Assembly: GCF_013167455.1 (NCBI RefSeq)
Contig: NZ_CP038328.1
From: Escherichia coli O157:H7
GTDB lineage: Bacteria; Pseudomonadota; Gammaproteobacteria; Enterobacterales; Enterobacteriaceae
Length of the DNA stretch: 64,000 nucleotides
Reading direction: 5' to 3' (one strand)
The notes below the pieces were generated by a model that had not been told where the DNA came from, ran no database searches, and saw only the letters and a program-made list of their open reading frames with translations. Position 1 is the first letter of the stretch, and every line of letters starts with the position of its first letter. Below are positions 4,945-52,111 of the stretch, one piece after another. The position numbers were made by a program, and so were the translations under genes.

Positions 4945-6288
4945 TTAACGGTAGCGTTTTATGGGGCTATTTTGATCCTGTTCAGCCAGCCAGGCGAGCT
5001 TTTCGCCAATCTTGCCTTCAAGGCCCCTGTTTGTCGGGAAATAATAGCGTGTTTGTGCTATTTCCGGCGGGAAGTAAACCTCACCGGCAGCATAAGCGTT
5101 TGCTTCATCATGAGCGTAACGATATTCCTGCCCGTAGCCCATTTCCTTCATTAATTTCGTCGGCGCATTACGCAAATGAACCGGCACGTCATAATCCGGG
5201 CGTTCGCGAGCATCGGCCAGCGCGGCTTTAAACGCAGTGTAGACAGCGTTGCTTTTTGGCGCGCAGGCCAGGTAAACAATCGCCTGAGCAATGGCGCGTT
5301 CACCTTCCGCCGGGCCAACGCGAGTAAAGCAATCCCAGGCCGCAATTGCCACCTGCATCGCCCGTGGATCGGCATTACCGACGTCTTCAGACGCAATCGC
5401 CAGACAGCGACGCGCGACATATAACGGATCGCCACCAGCGGTAATAATTCGCGCATACCAGTACAGCGCCGCATCGGGTGCGCTACCACGTACCGACTTA
5501 TGCAGTGCGGAAATCAGATCGTAAAAGCGATCGCCTTTGTTATCAAAGCGGGCGCTACGTTCACCGGCGATTTCGGTCAGTAATTCAGGCTTCAGGACCC
5601 GCTTACCGCTATCATCGACTTCGGCCATATCCGCCATCATTTCCAGCGTATTTAACGCCCGGCGCGCGTCGCCATTCACCAGTTCTGCAATGGCACGTCG
5701 TGTTTCATCTGGCAGAACAATATCCTGACCACCATAGCCACGGGTTTTGTCTTCCATCGCCTGAGTTAGTACTTGCTCAATATCCTCTGTACTCAGGGAT
5801 TTCAACAGATAAACACGGGCACGGGAAAGCAGTGCCGAATTAAGCTCAAACGACGGGTTTTCAGTGGTTGCGCCAATAAAAGTGATGGTGCCGTCTTCAA
5901 TATGTGGCAGAAATGCATCCTGCTGGCTTTTGTTGAAACGGTGAACTTCGTCAACAAAAAGAATAGTGCGGCGACCTGCATTGCGGTTTTGCCGGGCGCG
6001 CTCGATCGCCTCGCGAATCTCTTTCACACCAGAGGTGACGGCAGAAATACGTTCCACATCAGCGTTCGCATAGCGGGCAATCACTTCAGCGAGGGTTGTT
6101 TTGCCGGTACCCGGTGGCCCCCAGAGGATCATAGAATGTAAATGCCCGGCTTCGATAGCGCGCGGCAACGGCTTCCCCGCAGCCAGCAAATGTTGCTGAC
6201 CGATATACTGTGCTAAATTTTCTGGCCGCATACGCGCGGCCAGAGGTTGAAAAGTATTATCCGAAAAATCGAGCGACAGATTGCTCAC
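4945..6288 (-). CDS. rarA: Replication-associated recombination protein A (AAA+ ATPase RarA/MgsA)
   Basis: 447-aa ORF; Walker [10 protein letters not shown]; Walker [11 protein letters not shown]; position between lolA and serS. Confidence 0.93.
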
Positions 6289-28271: not shown

Positions 28272-28967
28272 ATGTTCAGAAAATTAGCAGCTGAATGTTT
28301 TGGTACTTTCTGGCTTGTTTTTGGTGGCTGTGGTAGTGCTGTACTGGCCGCAGGCTTCCCGGAATTAGGCATTGGTTTTGCCGGCGTGGCGTTGGCGTTC
28401 GGTCTGACCGTTCTGACGATGGCCTTTGCTGTTGGTCATATTTCTGGTGGTCATTTTAACCCGGCGGTCACTATTGGTTTATGGGCTGGCGGACGTTTTC
28501 CGGCAAAAGAAGTCGTTGGCTACGTAATTGCCCAGGTTGTCGGCGGTATTGTTGCGGCAGCGCTGCTGTATTTAATTGCCAGTGGTAAAACGGGTTTTGA
28601 CGCGGCAGCCAGCGGTTTTGCTTCTAACGGTTATGGCGAGCATTCACCAGGCGGTTATTCCATGCTTTCCGCGCTGGTAGTTGAACTGGTATTGAGTGCG
28701 GGCTTCCTGTTAGTGATCCACGGTGCAACCGACAAATTCGCTCCGGCAGGTTTTGCGCCGATCGCTATTGGTCTGGCCTTAACCCTGATTCACTTAATCA
28801 GTATTCCGGTGACTAACACTTCTGTTAACCCGGCGCGCAGCACCGCGGTTGCCATCTTCCAGGGCGGCTGGGCATTAGAACAACTGTGGTTCTTCTGGGT
28901 GGTGCCAATTGTCGGTGGCATTATCGGTGGTCTGATTTACCGGACTCTGCTGGAAAAGCGTAATTAA
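28272..28967 (+). CDS. aqpZ: Aquaporin Z
   Basis: 231-aa product [21 protein letters not shown]...; two NPA motifs (HFNPAV and VNPARS). Confidence 0.95.
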
Positions 28968-29424
28968 TTAGCATTGGCATTTTATCTGCCCTGGTTGTTT
29001 TATCTTCGACATTACAAACCGCACGGGTATTGGTGGCGTCAAAATCGCTGAAGCGTTCCCCGAAGGCCGGGGCAGCCCACATGGATGTGGGCTGAGGGCG
29101 CGTCTTACAGGACGTTACCTCGCGCCCGACCCGGTTGCCGAAGGGGATAAGCTGAAGGTACCGCGCAGCGGCGATTTTGTTCGCCAGAGCCCGGGGGTGC
29201 AGGGGGCGGCGGCGACTGGCCGCCCCCTGCGCGCTCCCTGCGCCAGTGGCTTTATATGGCATTGCACATGAAAGGAGCGCAACAATGCTAAACACTCATA
29301 TAGAATTAAAAATCCCCCTCTGATGCATAACATTTCCTTTTAATTGCAACTTTACTCGTCCTTCCGCTTTCAGTAGTGTGTCATCGCGCATTTCGACTTC
29401 TTTCTTTGCAAGGGCTGGTTTTTC

Positions 29425-30324
29425 ATGTTTTCTGGGTTGTTAATCATTCTGGTTCCCCTGATTGTGGGTTACCTCATTCCGCTTCGCCAACAAGCTGCGT
29501 TAAAAGTTATTAATCAGCTATTAAGCAGGATGGTTTACCTTATTCTCTTTTTTATGGGTATCAGTCTGGCGTTTCTCGATAACCTCGCCAGTAACCTGTT
29601 GGCGATTCTGCATTATTCTGCCGTCAGTATTACCGTTATTTTACTGTGTAATATTGCCGCCCTTATGTGGCTGGAGCGCGGTCTGCCGTGGCGCAACCAC
29701 CATCAGCAAGAAAAACTCCCGTCGCGTATTGCGATGGCGCTTGAGTCGCTAAAACTGTGCGGCGTAGTAGTGATTGGTTTTGCCATTGGCCTGAGTGGAC
29801 TGGCTTTCTTACAACACGCGACCGAAGCCAGTGAATACACGTTAATTCTGCTACTTTTCCTCGTCGGTATTCAGTTGCGCAATAATGGCATGACCTTAAA
29901 GCAGATTGTCCTTAATCGCCGGGGAATGATTGTCGCCGTGGTGGTGGTTGCCAGTTCATTAATTGGTGGTTTAATTAACGCCTTTATTCTTGATCTACCC
30001 ATCAATACCGCGCTGGCAATGGCCTCTGGTTTCGGCTGGTATTCTCTTTCCGGTATTTTATTGACCGAATCTTTTGGTCCGGTAATCGGGAGCGCGGCGT
30101 TTTTTAATGATCTGGCCCGTGAGCTGATTGCAATTATGTTGATCCCTGGGCTGATTCGCCGCAGCCGCTCTACCGCACTGGGCTTATGCGGTGCGACGTC
30201 GATGGATTTCACCCTGCCCGTTCTTCAACGTACTGGCGGGCTGGATATGGTCCCGGCAGCAATTGTTCACGGTTTTATTCTTAGCCTGTTAGTGCCGATC
30301 CTCATCGCCTTTTTCTCCGCGTAA
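29425..30324 (+). CDS. lysO: Lysine exporter LysO (YbjE)
   Basis: 299-aa polytopic membrane ORF at the conserved position between aqpZ and hcp. Confidence 0.88.
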   Translation: MFSGLLIILVPLIVGYLIPLRQQAALKVINQLLSRMVYLILFFMGISLAFLDNLASNLLAILHYSAVSITVILLCNIAALMWLERGLPWRNHHQQEKLPSRIAMALESLKLCGVVVIGFAIGLSGLAFLQHATEASEYTLILLLFLVGIQLRNNGMTLKQIVLNRRGMIVAVVVVASSLIGGLINAFILDLPINTALAMASGFGWYSLSGILLTESFGPVIGSAAFFNDLARELIAIMLIPGLIRRSRSTALGLCGATSMDFTLPVLQRTGGLDMVPAAIVHGFILSLLVPILIAFFSA

Positions 30325-46946: not shown

Positions 46947-46956
46947 TTATTCATTT

Positions 46957-46984
46957 GCCGGAGTGGGCGAACACCCACTCCGGC
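46957..46984. terminator. Perfect 11-bp GC-rich hairpin between convergent artJ and the accessory sulfatase gene (putative bidirectional terminator)
   Basis: GCCGGAGTGGG-cgaaca-CCCACTCCGGC; lies in the 50-bp gap between the two stop codons; no strong U-run on either side. Confidence 0.45.
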
Positions 46985-46996
46985 AAAATCACTTCT

Positions 46997-48478
46997 CTAC
47001 GCTAATCCCAGGCGCTGAAACTGCTCTGGCGGCGCATCATTATCTTTCATCAACTGAATCAGCAACGCGATCATCCGGGACTCGATCACATCATCATGAA
47101 TCGGATGTAGCTGCTGCGGATCGTTTTGCAGATCAAACAGCAAATGACCAAACTGATTCAACCCCTTATATTTTTCCTGTGCCGGGATGCGTAATACCTG
47201 TAACCCTTTGGTAAAACGAAACGGTGGGGCCAGCGATAAAGCCCGCATCTCATCCACCGGATAGCGGCTGTTCATTTTGCAGGACATCAACGTGTAGTTG
47301 GCAATATCATCCTCACGCCCCGGCAGCGCTGCACGCATATACACATAACGCCCATCAGTTACGTTAGCATGACCACTGAAAACACCAAACATCGCCGAGC
47401 TGCGTACTGGTTCATCGTGACTGACCGTTTTCGCCAGCGGTTGCCCCTGCACATCGGGCGGCACTGGCTGTTGAAAAAAGTCATACAACGTTGGCGCCCA
47501 GTCGATCATTTGTACCAGTGCCTGTCGCCGCTCTCCTTTTACACCACTGCGCGGGTTCCAGATAAACAACGGATTATTGGCAACTTCGTTGTAATAAGGC
47601 ATCTGGTTTTTCGCCCACCAGCCATGCTCACCGAGTAAAAAGCCGTGGTCAGTGCCGACAATCAGCATGGTATCTCGCCACAGATCGTGCTCATCCATCA
47701 GGTCGAGAATGCGCCCCAGGTTGCGATCGCACATCGACACCAGCGAACGATACCGGCAACGGATGTGCTCCACGGCCTCGTCGCTTTCCTGCACCCGGCC
47801 ACGCGGCCAGTCATAATGCGGTCCATCCCAGTTATCTTCATACAAGGAAAGATACTCTTCCGTTGTGTGAAACGGCTCGTGCGGATCAAACGTTTCGATC
47901 TGCAATAACCAGTTATCTTCCGCGTGATTTTTGTGGATAAAGGCACAGCCTGCATCAAACACTTTAGTTTGTGGAAAATCCGCTTCCTGCTGAATATATT
48001 CCCGGTTTGCCCAGTCATGGCGCCACAGACCAGAAACACCGCCACCGGTCTGCTTTTGCGGCACCCGTAGCACCTCGGGAATAGGCGGTTGCGCAACGCT
48101 TGCATGCCAGTGATCGCCTTCCTGTCCGCGCACAATCTCCCACGAACTGTAGCGATTATGATAATTCCCGCCGCCATCTTCCCAGTAATGCAAATGATCG
48201 CTTATCAGGTGGGTATAGATCCCCGCCTTTTTAAGCAGCTCCGGCATGGAATCGTCAAACGGTTCTAACGGCCCCCACTCCCGATGCAGGAAGTTACATC
48301 GCCCGGTATGCAACTCCCGCCGGGCAGGCATACACGGCATACTGCCGACGTAACTGTTTTCAAAGGTGGCGGCATGAGCCGCCAGACGTTGGAAATTAGG
48401 CGCTTTGGTTAACGCATCGCCATAAGGTGGCAGATAACGTTTATTCAGACTATCGAACAGCAGAATAATCGCTCTCAT
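46997..48478 (-). CDS. Accessory Cys-type sulfatase-family protein (alkaline-phosphatase superfamily), predicted cytoplasmic
   Basis: 493-aa ORF; sulfatase signature C49-M-P-A-R53 followed by RELHTGRC; no N-terminal signal peptide; last gene of a three-gene minus-strand cluster. Confidence 0.85.
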   Translation of the reverse strand: MRAIILLFDSLNKRYLPPYGDALTKAPNFQRLAAHAATFENSYVGSMPCMPARRELHTGRCNFLHREWGPLEPFDDSMPELLKKAGIYTHLISDHLHYWEDGGGNYHNRYSSWEIVRGQEGDHWHASVAQPPIPEVLRVPQKQTGGGVSGLWRHDWANREYIQQEADFPQTKVFDAGCAFIHKNHAEDNWLLQIETFDPHEPFHTTEEYLSLYEDNWDGPHYDWPRGRVQESDEAVEHIRCRYRSLVSMCDRNLGRILDLMDEHDLWRDTMLIVGTDHGFLLGEHGWWAKNQMPYYNEVANNPLFIWNPRSGVKGERRQALVQMIDWAPTLYDFFQQPVPPDVQGQPLAKTVSHDEPVRSSAMFGVFSGHANVTDGRYVYMRAALPGREDDIANYTLMSCKMNSRYPVDEMRALSLAPPFRFTKGLQVLRIPAQEKYKGLNQFGHLLFDLQNDPQQLHPIHDDVIESRMIALLIQLMKDNDAPPEQFQRLGLA

Positions 48479-48489
48479 TACGCCCTACC

Positions 48490-48810
48490 TTATTGATTAA
48501 TTAAATGCGGAAAATGTTGCTGAACCACTTCATAAATTTGCTGACCAATAGTTTCACCGTCCATAATATTCTCTATCGGAATCAAATATTGCCCTTGTTT
48601 CGGGTCAAGACTAACCACATCGAGTAATTTTTTGGAAATAGCAAAAATATCCGCCCAGTCGGTAAATCCGCCGACTTCACCTGCGGCGGTATGTTCCATT
48701 TCAACTTTGAAATCATATTTGGTCAGCGCTTTTTTAACGACCGTTTGTAACATAACGCTACTGCCTACACCGTAACCACAGACAAACAGAATATTAATTG
48801 TATCTTTCAT
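48490..48810 (-). CDS. Accessory PTS EIIB component, L-ascorbate (UlaB/SgaB)-like family
   Basis: 106-aa ORF MKDTINILFVCGYGVGSSVM... with the CGxGxGSS phospho-cysteine loop characteristic of ascorbate-family EIIB. Confidence 0.8.
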   Translation of the reverse strand: MKDTINILFVCGYGVGSSVMLQTVVKKALTKYDFKVEMEHTAAGEVGGFTDWADIFAISKKLLDVVSLDPKQGQYLIPIENIMDGETIGQQIYEVVQQHFPHLINQ

Positions 48811-48831
48811 TTTTAAACCCTTAATATTTAA

Positions 48832-50175
48832 TTAACCCGCGTAAGGACCAAGATGGAATGTTGCAGCGATAAATTTCAGAACTTCACAAATAGCAGGCCA
48901 TACGGTTGCCCAGTCAAATATTCCTGTCCAGCCGACGCCATTTTCAGCAAGCCCGGTTAACGGAATAGCCCACACCGTACCGAAGGTCTGAATAATACCC
49001 AGCAAGAACGTACAGATAATTACGGAACGGTATCCGCCCATGCGGTTTGCTAATACGCCAATTGGACCGCCAGAGAAAAACAGAGGTACAAAGCCAGGCA
49101 ATACCATAATTGGGCTGTGAACCAGTAATAAGATCCCCATCGAAAAAATGGTGCCAAAAGTACAGAAGACGAAGCCTAACGTTGCGGCATTGGGTGAAAA
49201 AGGTAACAGCGCTGCAACATCGACAGCAGGAATAGCGTTAGGAATAAAGCGATCTTGCCAGCCTTTAAACGAACCGTTAATTTCGCCCACCATCATGCGC
49301 ACACCCTGCAGCAGAATGACCATATACATGGAGAACTGTAAGCCAAGGTTGATGATATAGATGTACCAGGGCTTGCCTTTCGCCATTAACTGGACATTAT
49401 CGATACCCGTTGATAGCAAGAAACCACCGACAAACAGCGTCATCACAATGGCGATAGCCGTTACGTTATGGTTAAAAATCGCCAGCCACCCGGGAAGTTT
49501 CAGGTTTTCAGCATCGTGCTTTTCAGGGTCACCAAATTTATGGGCGAATTTGGAGAAAAACCACAATCCCAACATCTGGTTATGAGCAATGGTAAAACCG
49601 GCATCTTTGGTAACTTTGGCAATGGGCTTAACAATGAGCGTGGTGGAGAACGCCCAGAATACACCCGTTAATATTCCGGCAATAATAATGGATGTAGTCC
49701 AGCTAAAACCCAGCCAAAAGACAATCAACCATAATACCGCCTGAGAATGTGAAACACCGGTATTCCCTGTCAAAAATATCCCTTTGGCACCAGTATACCG
49801 ACCAAATAATACCAGCAGCAGGTTGGTAAAAAACGCCAGTACAAATACATACCCGACATAACCAAAATTATCCCCCAATGCAATTTGCGTTGCCGCTTTC
49901 ATTGCGTAGGAATCCATTAAATATCCGTGAACACCATAGGCTTTACTTACGGCTTCTGCTACCGGTTTAAATGTTGCGGAAAACTGGAAACCACCAAATA
50001 ACACCATCATTAATCCCACCATGGCGCTGACCATGCCGGTAATAATTTTTATTGGCGATTTCTTATCAAGGGCATAACCAATACCCACCAGCAAACCAAT
50101 TAAAATTGCCGGTTCAGTTAAAAACGTTTGAATAACATCTATGAATTTGGCAAACATCGTCGGAACGCCCTCCAT
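48832..50175 (-). CDS. Accessory PTS EIIC permease, L-ascorbate (UlaA/SgaT)-like family
   Basis: 447-aa polytopic membrane ORF; N-terminal third resembles recalled UlaA (e.g. ...FKPVAEAVSKAYGVHGYLMDSYAMKA... versus UlaA ...[27 protein letters not shown]...); an alternative start at the Met 6 codons downstream has a better GGAGG Shine-Dalgarno. Confidence 0.85.
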   Translation of the reverse strand: MEGVPTMFAKFIDVIQTFLTEPAILIGLLVGIGYALDKKSPIKIITGMVSAMVGLMMVLFGGFQFSATFKPVAEAVSKAYGVHGYLMDSYAMKAATQIALGDNFGYVGYVFVLAFFTNLLLVLFGRYTGAKGIFLTGNTGVSHSQAVLWLIVFWLGFSWTTSIIIAGILTGVFWAFSTTLIVKPIAKVTKDAGFTIAHNQMLGLWFFSKFAHKFGDPEKHDAENLKLPGWLAIFNHNVTAIAIVMTLFVGGFLLSTGIDNVQLMAKGKPWYIYIINLGLQFSMYMVILLQGVRMMVGEINGSFKGWQDRFIPNAIPAVDVAALLPFSPNAATLGFVFCTFGTIFSMGILLLVHSPIMVLPGFVPLFFSGGPIGVLANRMGGYRSVIICTFLLGIIQTFGTVWAIPLTGLAENGVGWTGIFDWATVWPAICEVLKFIAATFHLGPYAG

Positions 50176-50365
50176 ACGCGTACATTTCCGTTGTCAATGC
50201 ATGAACCTTCTGCTGACGTTAATAATGTCTCAGGAAATTTTGTGTTTCGCTAAGCAATGCCTCTGTATGTATTCGGTAAGTGCACTGTAGTAATCAAAAC
50301 AGTTCAATTAAAGATCTTATTTGATTATTTGTGATTTGATTTGCAAAAATAGAGCAATATATAAC

Positions 50366-50401
50366 CGTGATCGATCGGTTATTATTAATCGATCGATCAC
50401 G
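50366..50401. promoter_or_regulatory. Perfect 12-bp inverted repeat with 12-nt AT spacer upstream of the accessory PTS cluster (candidate operator or RNA structure)
   Basis: CGTGATCGATCG-gttattattaat-CGATCGATCACG, about 190-225 nt upstream of the EIIC start and 54-89 nt downstream of the rlmC stop. Confidence 0.35.
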
Positions 50402-50454
50402 ATTATTATTTTGGATGGATGTATGCCGAGGTGATATTGATTTGAATGATGTAT

Positions 50455-51582
50455 TTACATTTTTACCAGCAGCGTCAGCACTTCATAGTGCGCGGTGTGC
50501 GGGAACATATCAAAAAGCTGTACCCGTTCGATGCGGTAACCTGGCAGTTCGCGGATATCTTTCGCCATGGTTTGGGCGTTACAGCTGGAGTAGATAATAA
50601 AACGCGGTGCCATCGTTGAGAGATAATCACACAGCGGTTTACCAATGCCGCGGCGCGGCGGGTTAACCAGCACCAGCTCCGGCACCTCCCCCTGAGCGGT
50701 GGCAAACTGAGTGGAGTCCAGCGCCTGAAATTGCAGACGCGTTAAGCCCAGTTCAGCGGCTGACTGCTTTGCACAGGCAATGGCCTCTAGCGCAATTTCG
50801 ATCCCGGTTAACTGCATGTCAGGCGTCGCGCAGTGTAAACCAAAGCCCCCCACACCGCAGAACAGATCCCACATATGTTTAACCGGCAGCTGTCGTACCC
50901 AGTCGCGCGCGGTAGCGTACAGCTGGCTGGCGACCGCCGGATTAGTCTGGAAGAAACTTTGCGGACGGATCCACAGCGGCACATCGTTAAAACGCTCTAC
51001 CAGCGCCTGTTGTTCGGTCAGGTAGATCTCCGTCTCCCCTTCCATAATCGCCATATGTACCGGCTGAATATTGACGGTGATAACTTTTAGCTGCGGCAAT
51101 TGTGCCTGTAACCACGGCAATGCCTTACGCAGTTGTGCTAGTTTGGTTTCAGAACGCAGTACAAAGCGCAGCATCATGCCGCCATCGCTCTGGCTTTCAG
51201 TCAGCAGAATGTATTTCAGTTCGCCACGCTTACGCGCCACGTTGTAGGGCGTTAACCCCGCTCGGGCGATAAACGGTTTTAGCGCCGCAAAAACGGGCGC
51301 AAATGAGGCAGGATAAAGCGGGCAGTCACAAAGGTCTTCCGGTGTGCCGTCGCGATGCAGCATACCGAGCAGTGGTTTTTCAACGCTACCACTCACCACC
51401 ATTTTGGCTTTATTACGAAACCCTTGTTCCGGGCCTGACACCGGCGCGCACCATTCCTCAACCGGAAAGTCGGCGAGCAGATTTTTAAGATCGGCGGTTT
51501 TAGCGGAGAGTTGCTCTGGAATCGGCTGCGTTATCCACTGACAGGAACGACAGCGACCCGCGTCGTAAAGTGCGCACTGCAT
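50455..51582 (-). CDS. rlmC: 23S rRNA (uracil747-C5)-methyltransferase RlmC (RumB)
   Basis: 375-aa [28 protein letters not shown]... with N-terminal Cys cluster and SAM-dependent methyltransferase core. Confidence 0.93.
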
Positions 51583-51622
51583 ACATTGACCTTCACATCA
51601 TCAGGGGCGACGATTATACACA

Positions 51623-52111
51623 TTATTGCAACTGGAAGAACCGCCGACTGGTCGAGGGAACGAACAGCAGCATCAGGATGAGCATATCCGGCAGCTTCTG
51701 CAGCATCAGGCTATGGAAGATTTCACGTTTTGATTCACCGGGAATGCTGAACAGCTCCGGATAACCGTACCCCAGCGAAGCCGCCCACAAGTAACTTGCG
51801 GCAGTGATTTGTGTCAGCAGATACAGCCAGCGCGCCCAGCGACGCCCTTTCACCAGTGAAAACGCACACCAGATCTCAATGAAAACCAGCACCAGACTGC
51901 TTAAAAAGACCAGCGTTAAACTCCAGGTTTGTACGCTGCGATGAATGAACTCGCCAATACCGCGCACGCCCAGCGTATTGAAAATCATCAGCACGTCGAG
52001 GCCACGGATCATAATAATGGCGAGCGCCGCCACCTGCACAAGCGCAGGCACATTCAGGCGAGCATGAGATGAAGATGTTTTCTTAAAAAATCCCAACGTT
52101 TCGTCTTCCAT
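51623..52111 (-). CDS. ybjO: Inner-membrane protein YbjO
   Basis: 162-aa hydrophobic ORF at the conserved position between potI and rlmC. Confidence 0.85.
   Translation of the reverse strand: MEDETLGFFKKTSSSHARLNVPALVQVAALAIIMIRGLDVLMIFNTLGVRGIGEFIHRSVQTWSLTLVFLSSLVLVFIEIWCAFSLVKGRRWARWLYLLTQITAASYLWAASLGYGYPELFSIPGESKREIFHSLMLQKLPDMLILMLLFVPSTSRRFFQLQ

Follow-up and report, generated by a model that had tools for sequence, protein, structure and literature searches.

The gap between the convergent artJ and sulfatase genes of Escherichia coli O157:H7 holds a perfect palindrome that can fold into a very stable stem-loop in the mRNAs of both genes. We consider it most likely, with a probability of roughly 0.6, that this palindrome serves as a shared pause and collision site for RNA polymerase and as an exonuclease barrier that sets the 3' ends of both mRNAs, rather than as an efficient intrinsic terminator. 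The hairpin occupies one place per genome, is linked to a three-gene sulfatase/PTS cluster and stands where strains that lack the cluster have a different, canonical terminator; stable hairpins also follow the sulfatase gene in other genera. The features on which the argument rests are collected in Table 1, in which positions refer to the 64,000-nt stretch of DNA that was analysed (the window), a sequence 100% identical to several O157 chromosomes.

Table 1. Features of the artJ/sulfatase region and of the alleles found at the same site. Positions are those of the window unless another locus is named.
Feature	Position	Strand	Description and basis
artJ CDS, arginine ABC transporter substrate-binding protein	46215..46946	+	ORF list; RefSeq annotation of the identical O157 record
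Spacer TTATTCA	46947..46953		7 nt, artJ stop to stem; homology with cluster-less E. coli stops inside it
Perfect palindrome	46954..46987		34 bp; 14-bp arms TTTGCCGGAGTGGG / CCCACTCCGGCAAA and a 6-nt loop
Left GC-rich arm GCCGGAGTGGG	46957..46967		Sequence
Hairpin loop cgaaca	46968..46973		Sequence
Right GC-rich arm CCCACTCCGGC	46974..46984		Sequence
Spacer	46988..46996		9 nt, stem to sulfatase stop codon; sequence
Sulfatase CDS	46997..48478	-	493 aa, last gene of a three-gene operon; ORF list, RefSeq 'sulfatase'
PTS IIB component	48490..48810	-	ORF list, RefSeq, Pfam PTS_IIB
PTS IIC component (EIIC-GAT family)	48832..50175	-	First gene of the operon; ORF list, RefSeq
Co-inherited haplotype block	45917..50413		artM-artJ intergenic region, artJ, hairpin, three cluster genes, upstream region
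Minimal cluster-less allele	L071 994-1021 (ST131); L072 1048-1075 (WB61)		28-bp gap; TAA-GATTCAG-AAAGCCGCacctGCGGCTTTTTTATTG
K-12 allele	L001 2848-3045		Terminator hairpin present twice, around a ~150-bp two-REP insertion
O103:H2 allele	L070 1048-1221		174-bp gap; artJ-side (left) hairpin copy missing

The TAA stop codon of artJ (46944-46946, + strand) and the TAG stop codon of the sulfatase gene (46997-46999, - strand) leave 50 bp between the two convergent genes (46947-46996, corresponding to 1,028,392-1,028,441 in Sakai NC_002695.2). The gene assignments agree with the protein families detected, as ArtJ matches Pfam SBP_bac_3 (E = 1.7e-43), the sulfatase matches Pfam Sulfatase (E = 4e-28) and the PTS IIC component matches Pfam EIIC-GAT (E = 4e-97). 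The earlier note had described a gap of this length containing the GC-rich inverted repeat GCCGGAGTGGG-cgaaca-CCCACTCCGGC; by coordinates the length is exact, and arms and loop are all present at 46957-46984. Pairing extends even further than the note had claimed, since TTTG pairs with CAAA and lengthens the palindrome to 46954-46987, giving a 14-bp stem in which 9 of the 11 core pairs are G-C. The predicted fold energies of the hairpin RNA are -27.7 kcal/mol on the + strand (artJ) and -29.2 kcal/mol on the - strand (sulfatase), with z-scores of -8.5 and -7.5, respectively, and none of 200 shuffled sequences was as stable. The inverted-repeat pattern had one match in the window, with 0 expected. 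Perfect arms of at least 11 bp occur at only five loci in the 64 kb, two of which are canonical terminators with T-runs.

Several other elements were seen in or near the gap and elsewhere in the window. A promoter search of the artJ/sulfatase gap found none. An 83-aa ORF that starts inside the hairpin (46963-47214, + strand) is antisense to the sulfatase gene and was for that reason regarded as spurious. The sequence across the artJ stop codon, GCAATAATTATTCATT (46939-46956), resembles by eye a single ArgR box, with one perfect ATTCA half-site and an AT-rich centre; the likeness is weaker in one of the two cluster haplotypes described below (haplotype B) and is likely due to chance. At 29200-29229 lies another GC-rich perfect inverted repeat without a T-run, CAGGGGGCGGC-N8-GCCGCCCCCTG, inside a 124-aa ORF on the - strand (28921-29295); two + strand ORFs flank the repeat, the first ending at 28967 and the second starting at 29425.

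The tails past the stem read AAAAUCACUU for artJ and AAAUGAAUAA for the sulfatase gene; as the earlier note had stated, a U-run is absent from both. The first 8 nt of the tails contain one and two U, respectively, and a consensus terminator scan did not call the artJ/sulfatase hairpin. The runs that do flank the stem, Ts on its 5' side and As on its 3' side, have the wrong polarity on both strands, so that neither RNA gets a U-tract. Intrinsic terminators need a weak rU:dA hybrid in order to release E. coli RNA polymerase. Because neither RNA has a U-tract, efficient release of the polymerase is unlikely, and the doubt raised earlier about the efficiency of the hairpin as an intrinsic terminator was reasonable. 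Alternatively, the very stable 14-bp stem might compensate for the missing U-tracts, in which case the element would be an efficient bidirectional intrinsic terminator after all. This would be in keeping with the presence of a very strong GC hairpin exactly where cluster-less strains have a canonical bidirectional one, and with the canonical terminator found at the orthologous site in Yokenella. Weighed against the U-poor tails, the lack of a call in the scan and the opposite polarity of the flanking runs, however, we consider such compensation unlikely.

In order to see what the hairpin replaces, we turn to strains that lack the cluster. The sulfatase gene adjoins artJ in 566 of 5,426 complete E. 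coli genomes (10.4%). In the remaining 4,860, Megablast homology to O157 extends no further than 46948-46953, or 2-7 nt beyond the artJ stop, after which a different terminator follows, and the artJ-rlmC gap exists in at least three alleles. The canonical terminator of cluster-less strains, AAAGCCGC-N4-GCGGCTTTTTT, was found in 4,837 genomes. In the minimal allele it constitutes a bidirectional intrinsic terminator: on either strand the stem is preceded by an A-run and followed by a U-run. The element starts 7 nt past the stop codon of artJ and overlaps that of rlmC. The K-12 insertion is bounded by the inverted repeats GAGACTGATGACAAAG and CTTTGTCAGCAATCTG, and the double terminator of this allele looks like a target duplication of the hairpin. 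For MG1655, Adams et al. 2021 (PMC7815308, supplementary file 1) list a strong Term-seq 3' end on the strand of artJ, at 899644 (-); this position falls within ...GAAGCCGCACATGCGGCTTTTTTATTGCTTCAC, the terminator copy adjoining rlmC. In one cluster-less genome, that of ST131 strain 5506 (L071 1-993), artJ is annotated as a pseudogene whose 5' end is cut by an insertion of the IS66-like element ISEc23.

The O157 hairpin is thus not the native artJ terminator, one of two origins entertained in the earlier note: the native terminator is a different canonical element, to which the K-12 3' end maps, and the O157 hairpin replaces it, likewise 7 nt past the artJ stop. As for the other origin, that the hairpin came with an insertion and displaced the native terminator, its linkage to the cluster and the replacement itself hold, but the data described below do not support a recent acquisition.

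A 161-nt probe running from the 3' end of artJ through the hairpin into the 3' end of the sulfatase gene matched all 566 cluster-bearing genomes; a 48-nt probe consisting of the hairpin and its flanks matched exactly one place per genome in 562 genomes, and never a plasmid. Of the 566 cluster-bearing E. coli, 562 contain the exact 28-mer of the hairpin, which occurs nowhere else in E. coli, and four do not.

Scanning the sulfatase protein against one genome per species yielded eight enterobacterial loci. The gene order rlmC-IIC-IIB-sulfatase, convergent with artJ, is shared by three other Escherichia species and by Salmonella arizonae and S. diarizonae, and the adjacency of sulfatase and artJ also occurs in Yokenella. 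The hairpin of Escherichia sp. E1V33 is identical to that of O157. In E. whittamii it carries one stem mismatch and has lost the A-U extension, and in Escherichia sp. MOD1-EC7003 the upper 8 bp are kept while the lower stem contains a 2-nt bulge; neither stem change is compensatory. The gap of the Escherichia genomes has been reduced to ~50 bp, and artJ lacks a separate terminator there. The two Salmonella have a gap of ~234 bp, in which a different hairpin, GCCGGGT...ACCCGGC, lies 19 nt past the sulfatase stop and is followed by a second hairpin and a REP. In Yokenella regensburgei, where rlmC is not upstream, artJ has its own terminator, and past the sulfatase stop lies a canonical one whose U-tract points in the sulfatase direction. 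Silvania confinis and Leclercia sp. carry the cluster elsewhere in the genome and have no gap, as the next gene follows at once. All of the orthologous hairpins past the sulfatase stop are stable (-16 to -29 kcal/mol). Six distinct sequences were available for judging covariation, those of Salmonella being too divergent for confident alignment. Because the orthologous sites keep stable hairpins, a transcript-end hairpin past the sulfatase gene is a conserved positional feature of the operon, its sequence not being conserved.

The hairpin might also be a decayed, 'perfected' REP remnant which, if active, would act as a 3' mRNA stabiliser or a partial Rho-dependent attenuator. Its GCCGGA...TCCGGC ends resemble REP, the corresponding hairpin of S. 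arizonae carries the REP-like tail ...CCCGGCTTAC, and REPs are abundant in other alleles of the artJ-rlmC intergenic region. When the hairpin was aligned to REP consensus sequences, the best local alignment scored 17-19, a value reached by 2-8% of null sequences; under the two null models used this similarity is marginal (p about 0.02-0.08). On the other hand, there is one copy of the hairpin per genome, its palindrome is perfect rather than imperfect, it has no GTAG/CTAC tail, and the REP-derived Rfam model naRNA4 (RF02564) matches 45957-46037 but, with E values up to 10, not 46947-46996. A permissive Rfam scan of 45800-51800 likewise found nothing on the hairpin. A REP ancestry therefore seems improbable to us, even as the ends of the stem recall it.

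Membership of the hairpin in any repeat family was considered separately and ruled out, given the single match in the window and the one place per genome in 562 genomes. The naRNA4 match itself (78.5 bits, - strand) marks a REP/BIME in the artM-artJ spacer at 45957-46037. It is followed at 46063-46095 by a canonical terminator (14-bp stem plus TTTTTTATTT), located just upstream of the artJ promoter region.

The earlier note regarded the cluster as acquired and the hairpin as its left junction. The 3.5-kb cluster, of which E. coli has two deep haplotypes, contains only the IIC, IIB and sulfatase genes; integrase and transposase genes are absent, and no mobility genes were found within it. No direct repeats were detected, there being no shared k-mer of at least 8 nt between the two cluster junctions, and an island att site or direct repeats at the cluster ends were rejected as candidates on the same comparison. 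Identities between E. coli and Salmonella are 85-86% for the sulfatase, 95% for IIC and 84-85% for IIB, similar to those of the flanking proteins (90% for ArtJ, 88% for RlmC). A recent acquired insertion is not supported by these sequence comparisons, given that synteny spans genera, that flanking repeats and mobility genes are missing and that the block inherited together with the cluster includes artJ.

The limits of this block emerge from a comparison of O157 with Escherichia sp. E1V33, in which 45917-50413 contains 38 mismatches, with dense mismatches on both sides; the ~4.5-kb block is 99.2% identical between the two, its flanks 91-97%. Such a distribution of mismatches indicates that the whole block has been exchanged recently between lineages by homologous recombination. 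Compared with K-12, artJ of O157 is only 87-96% identical whereas artQ/artM are ~99% identical, and some strains, MB53 and LP5-1, carry artJ mosaics whose breakpoint is intragenic. Judging from the identity of the block, the divergence of artJ and the mosaic alleles, the artJ allele, the hairpin and the three cluster genes move together by homologous recombination; instead of the hairpin, the end of artM and the IIC-rlmC spacer hold the recombination junctions. Since the exchanged unit includes artJ, the hairpin is an indel boundary and not a recombination junction; what remains of the proposed left junction is the point, at 46948-46953, where homology with cluster-less strains ends. The artJ-sulfatase spacer of S. 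arizonae contains a hairpin-plus-GAGACTGATGACAAA motif, the same as that beside the K-12 REPs, a finding that would fit a loss of the cluster from a larger spacer in the ancestor; the cluster-less state may have arisen by deletion or the cluster-bearing state by an ancient insertion. The cluster thus appears to be old and syntenic across genera rather than a recent O157 acquisition, artJ itself is part of the exchanged block, and the E. coli artJ/rlmC site is a multi-allelic hotspot with the 28-bp terminator, the K-12 duplicate, the 174-bp variant and the 3.5-kb cluster.

The spacer that separates rlmC from the IIC gene contains a palindrome at 50366-50401 with 16-bp arms of AT/GC composition, CGTGATCGATCG...CGATCGATCACG. 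Its core TGATCGATCG-N11-CGATCGATCA and the GGTTATATATTGCTCTATTTTTGCAAATCAAATCACAAATA after it keep their sequence from E. coli to S. arizonae, and the palindrome probably serves as an operator/promoter region for the PTS-sulfatase operon, as terminator of rlmC, or as both. The sulfatase is of the Cys-type and cytoplasmic; close homologues (60-67% identity) are widespread in gut Firmicutes, namely Lachnospiraceae, Clostridium and Erysipelotrichaceae, and Lokiarchaeota MAGs carry homologues with 54% identity. These homologues suggest that the enzyme may have spread broadly by horizontal transfer. The GAT/ascorbate-type PTS is a candidate importer of the sulfatase substrate.

The two cluster haplotypes of E. 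coli, which are ~92-93% identical over the whole cluster, have the hairpin loop in opposite orientations. Haplotype A (O157, O145 and others; 415 genomes) has the loop cgaaca and haplotype B (GMM076 and others; 147 genomes) the loop tgttcg, its exact reverse complement, between identical arms. O157 46955-46987 matches a haplotype B locus (L003) at 100% on the opposite strand, with the loop at 46968-46973 corresponding to 5869-5874 there. Because the two orientation groups sum to 562 (415 + 147), there are no recombinants that combine the flanks of one haplotype with the loop of the other. The loop difference is one fixed minute inversion of a perfect palindrome and not a switch. The loops of E. 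whittamii and MOD1-EC7003 are in the A-like orientation, and haplotype B is therefore probably the derived state. A phase-variable invertible loop had been considered as a candidate and was ruled out, the orientation being tied to its own flanks in the 415 and 147 genomes.

Hairpin-associated minute inversions are known from chloroplast DNA. In proteobacteria, replication template switching at inverted repeats has been proposed as a source of such flips and as a process that keeps the arms perfect (PMC5941160). Since template switching can maintain them, perfect arms are not in themselves evidence of selection. Between the haplotypes none of the 28 stem positions has changed at a divergence of ~8%, for which the probability by chance is ~0.1, so the unchanged stem argues only weakly for selection.

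The loop inversion also bears on a bolder proposal, namely that the element is a U-tract-less collision/pause terminator whose efficiency is set by transcription of the partner gene and whose flip reflects extrusion of the hairpin during replication in vivo. We hold this combined claim to be quite doubtful. If it were true, the arginine-regulated artJ gene and the sulfatase/PTS operon would interfere with each other through read-through antisense RNA in cluster-bearing E. coli, strains with the canonical terminator would be free of this artJ-sulfatase/PTS coupling, and the exact loop inversion would be in vivo evidence that the palindrome is extruded as a hairpin during replication.

A function at the DNA level, as a recombination or insertion site or as a protein-binding palindrome left at an island junction, is very unlikely. 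The hairpin does sit exactly where homology with cluster-less genomes ends, and the inversion of its loop shows that the palindrome is mutationally active. However, no matching sequence of at least 8 bp occurs at the other cluster end, and no integrase or transposase is present; the exchanged block reaches well past the hairpin, and the fixed orientation of the loop within each haplotype argues against a switch. In addition, the sequence of the hairpin is not conserved between Escherichia and Salmonella, whereas that of the palindrome at 50366-50401 is. A functionless, neutral palindrome with arms kept perfect by template switching would accord with the proposal cited above, with the statistically unremarkable conservation of the stem and with its decay in sister species, but it is hardly credible given that a stable hairpin, differing in sequence, is found in every enterobacterial genome with an intergenic gap past the sulfatase gene and that in O157 the palindrome is the sole non-coding sequence available to end two convergent transcripts.

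We return to the reading favoured at the outset, that of a shared pause and collision site combined with an exonuclease barrier. The palindrome would be the single 3'-end stem-loop common to artJ (+) and the IIC-IIB-sulfatase operon (-). The nascent hairpin would pause the polymerase in the gap, so that converging polymerases would meet there. RNA that continues past the hairpin, untranslated and antisense to the partner gene, would be ended by Rho, and 3'-5' exonucleases would trim such read-through RNA back to the base of the hairpin, which would then protect both mRNAs. Considering that the stem lies 7 nt and 9 nt from the two stop codons, a terminating ribosome would leave all but its lowest pairs closed. 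Past the hairpin, the artJ-strand RNA is antisense and not translated; its first 78 nt have a C/G ratio of 1.85, and this richness in C and scarcity of G is compatible with Rho loading. The two halves of this scheme have precedents: in collision-type terminators, the hairpin is a pause that fixes the site of head-on polymerase collision (Wang et al., bioRxiv 10.1101/2022.10.23.513370), and REP hairpins are partial Rho-dependent terminators and also stabilise the mRNA upstream of them by blocking 3' exonucleases (bioRxiv 10.64898/2026.03.23.713779). We infer the pausing, the collision, the involvement of Rho and the stabilising role from the arrangement of the locus and from these precedents, and the collision model would presuppose that the sulfatase operon and artJ are transcribed simultaneously. 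Our confidence is high for the structure and evolution of the hairpin and about even for its mode of action. A literature search for the artJ terminator or 3'-UTR and for ECs0940-0942 returned nothing specific.

A stem-loop shared between convergent genes is a known kind of element, and the present one is ordinary; the finding matters little beyond the artJ/sulfatase locus. Its local interest lies in the natural replacement of a canonical bidirectional terminator at the same position, together with a clean flip of the palindrome. The two arrangements constitute a natural allelic pair, a canonical terminator and a U-less hairpin at one position, which could be used to compare intrinsic with collision- or Rho-assisted termination between convergent genes.

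Compared with the canonical artJ/rlmC terminator, the O157 hairpin starts at the same distance from the artJ stop, 7 nt, and is likewise a single hairpin serving two convergent genes. The gap is 50 bp in O157 and 28 bp in the minimal cluster-less allele, the stems are 14 bp and 10 bp long, respectively, and their sequences are unrelated. The flanking runs have opposite polarity, TTT-stem-AAA in O157 as opposed to AAA-stem-TTTTTT in the canonical element, and of these two a mapped 3' end is known for the K-12 canonical element only. With REP/BIME elements the hairpin shares its nature as a GC-rich extragenic palindrome at a gene 3' end, the GCCGGA/TCCGGC-like ends and the expected function, exonuclease barrier plus attenuation; it differs from them in being single-copy, in its perfect arms and in lacking both a GTAG/CTAC tail and an Rfam naRNA4 match. 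As in template-switched inverted repeats (PMC5941160), the arms are kept and the spacer is exactly reverse-complemented between two lineages, although template switching is an account of DNA mutation and not of the function of an element, and the flip of the artJ/sulfatase palindrome is a single fixed event, not a recurrent one. As for collision-type terminators (Ju et al. 2019; Wang et al. 2022, bioRxiv 10.1101/2022.10.23.513370), membership is defined by overlapping mapped 3' ends and by termination that is Rho-independent and requires convergent transcription; the O157 hairpin resembles them in lying between convergent genes, in having a stable RNA hairpin on both strands and in not looking like an intrinsic terminator.
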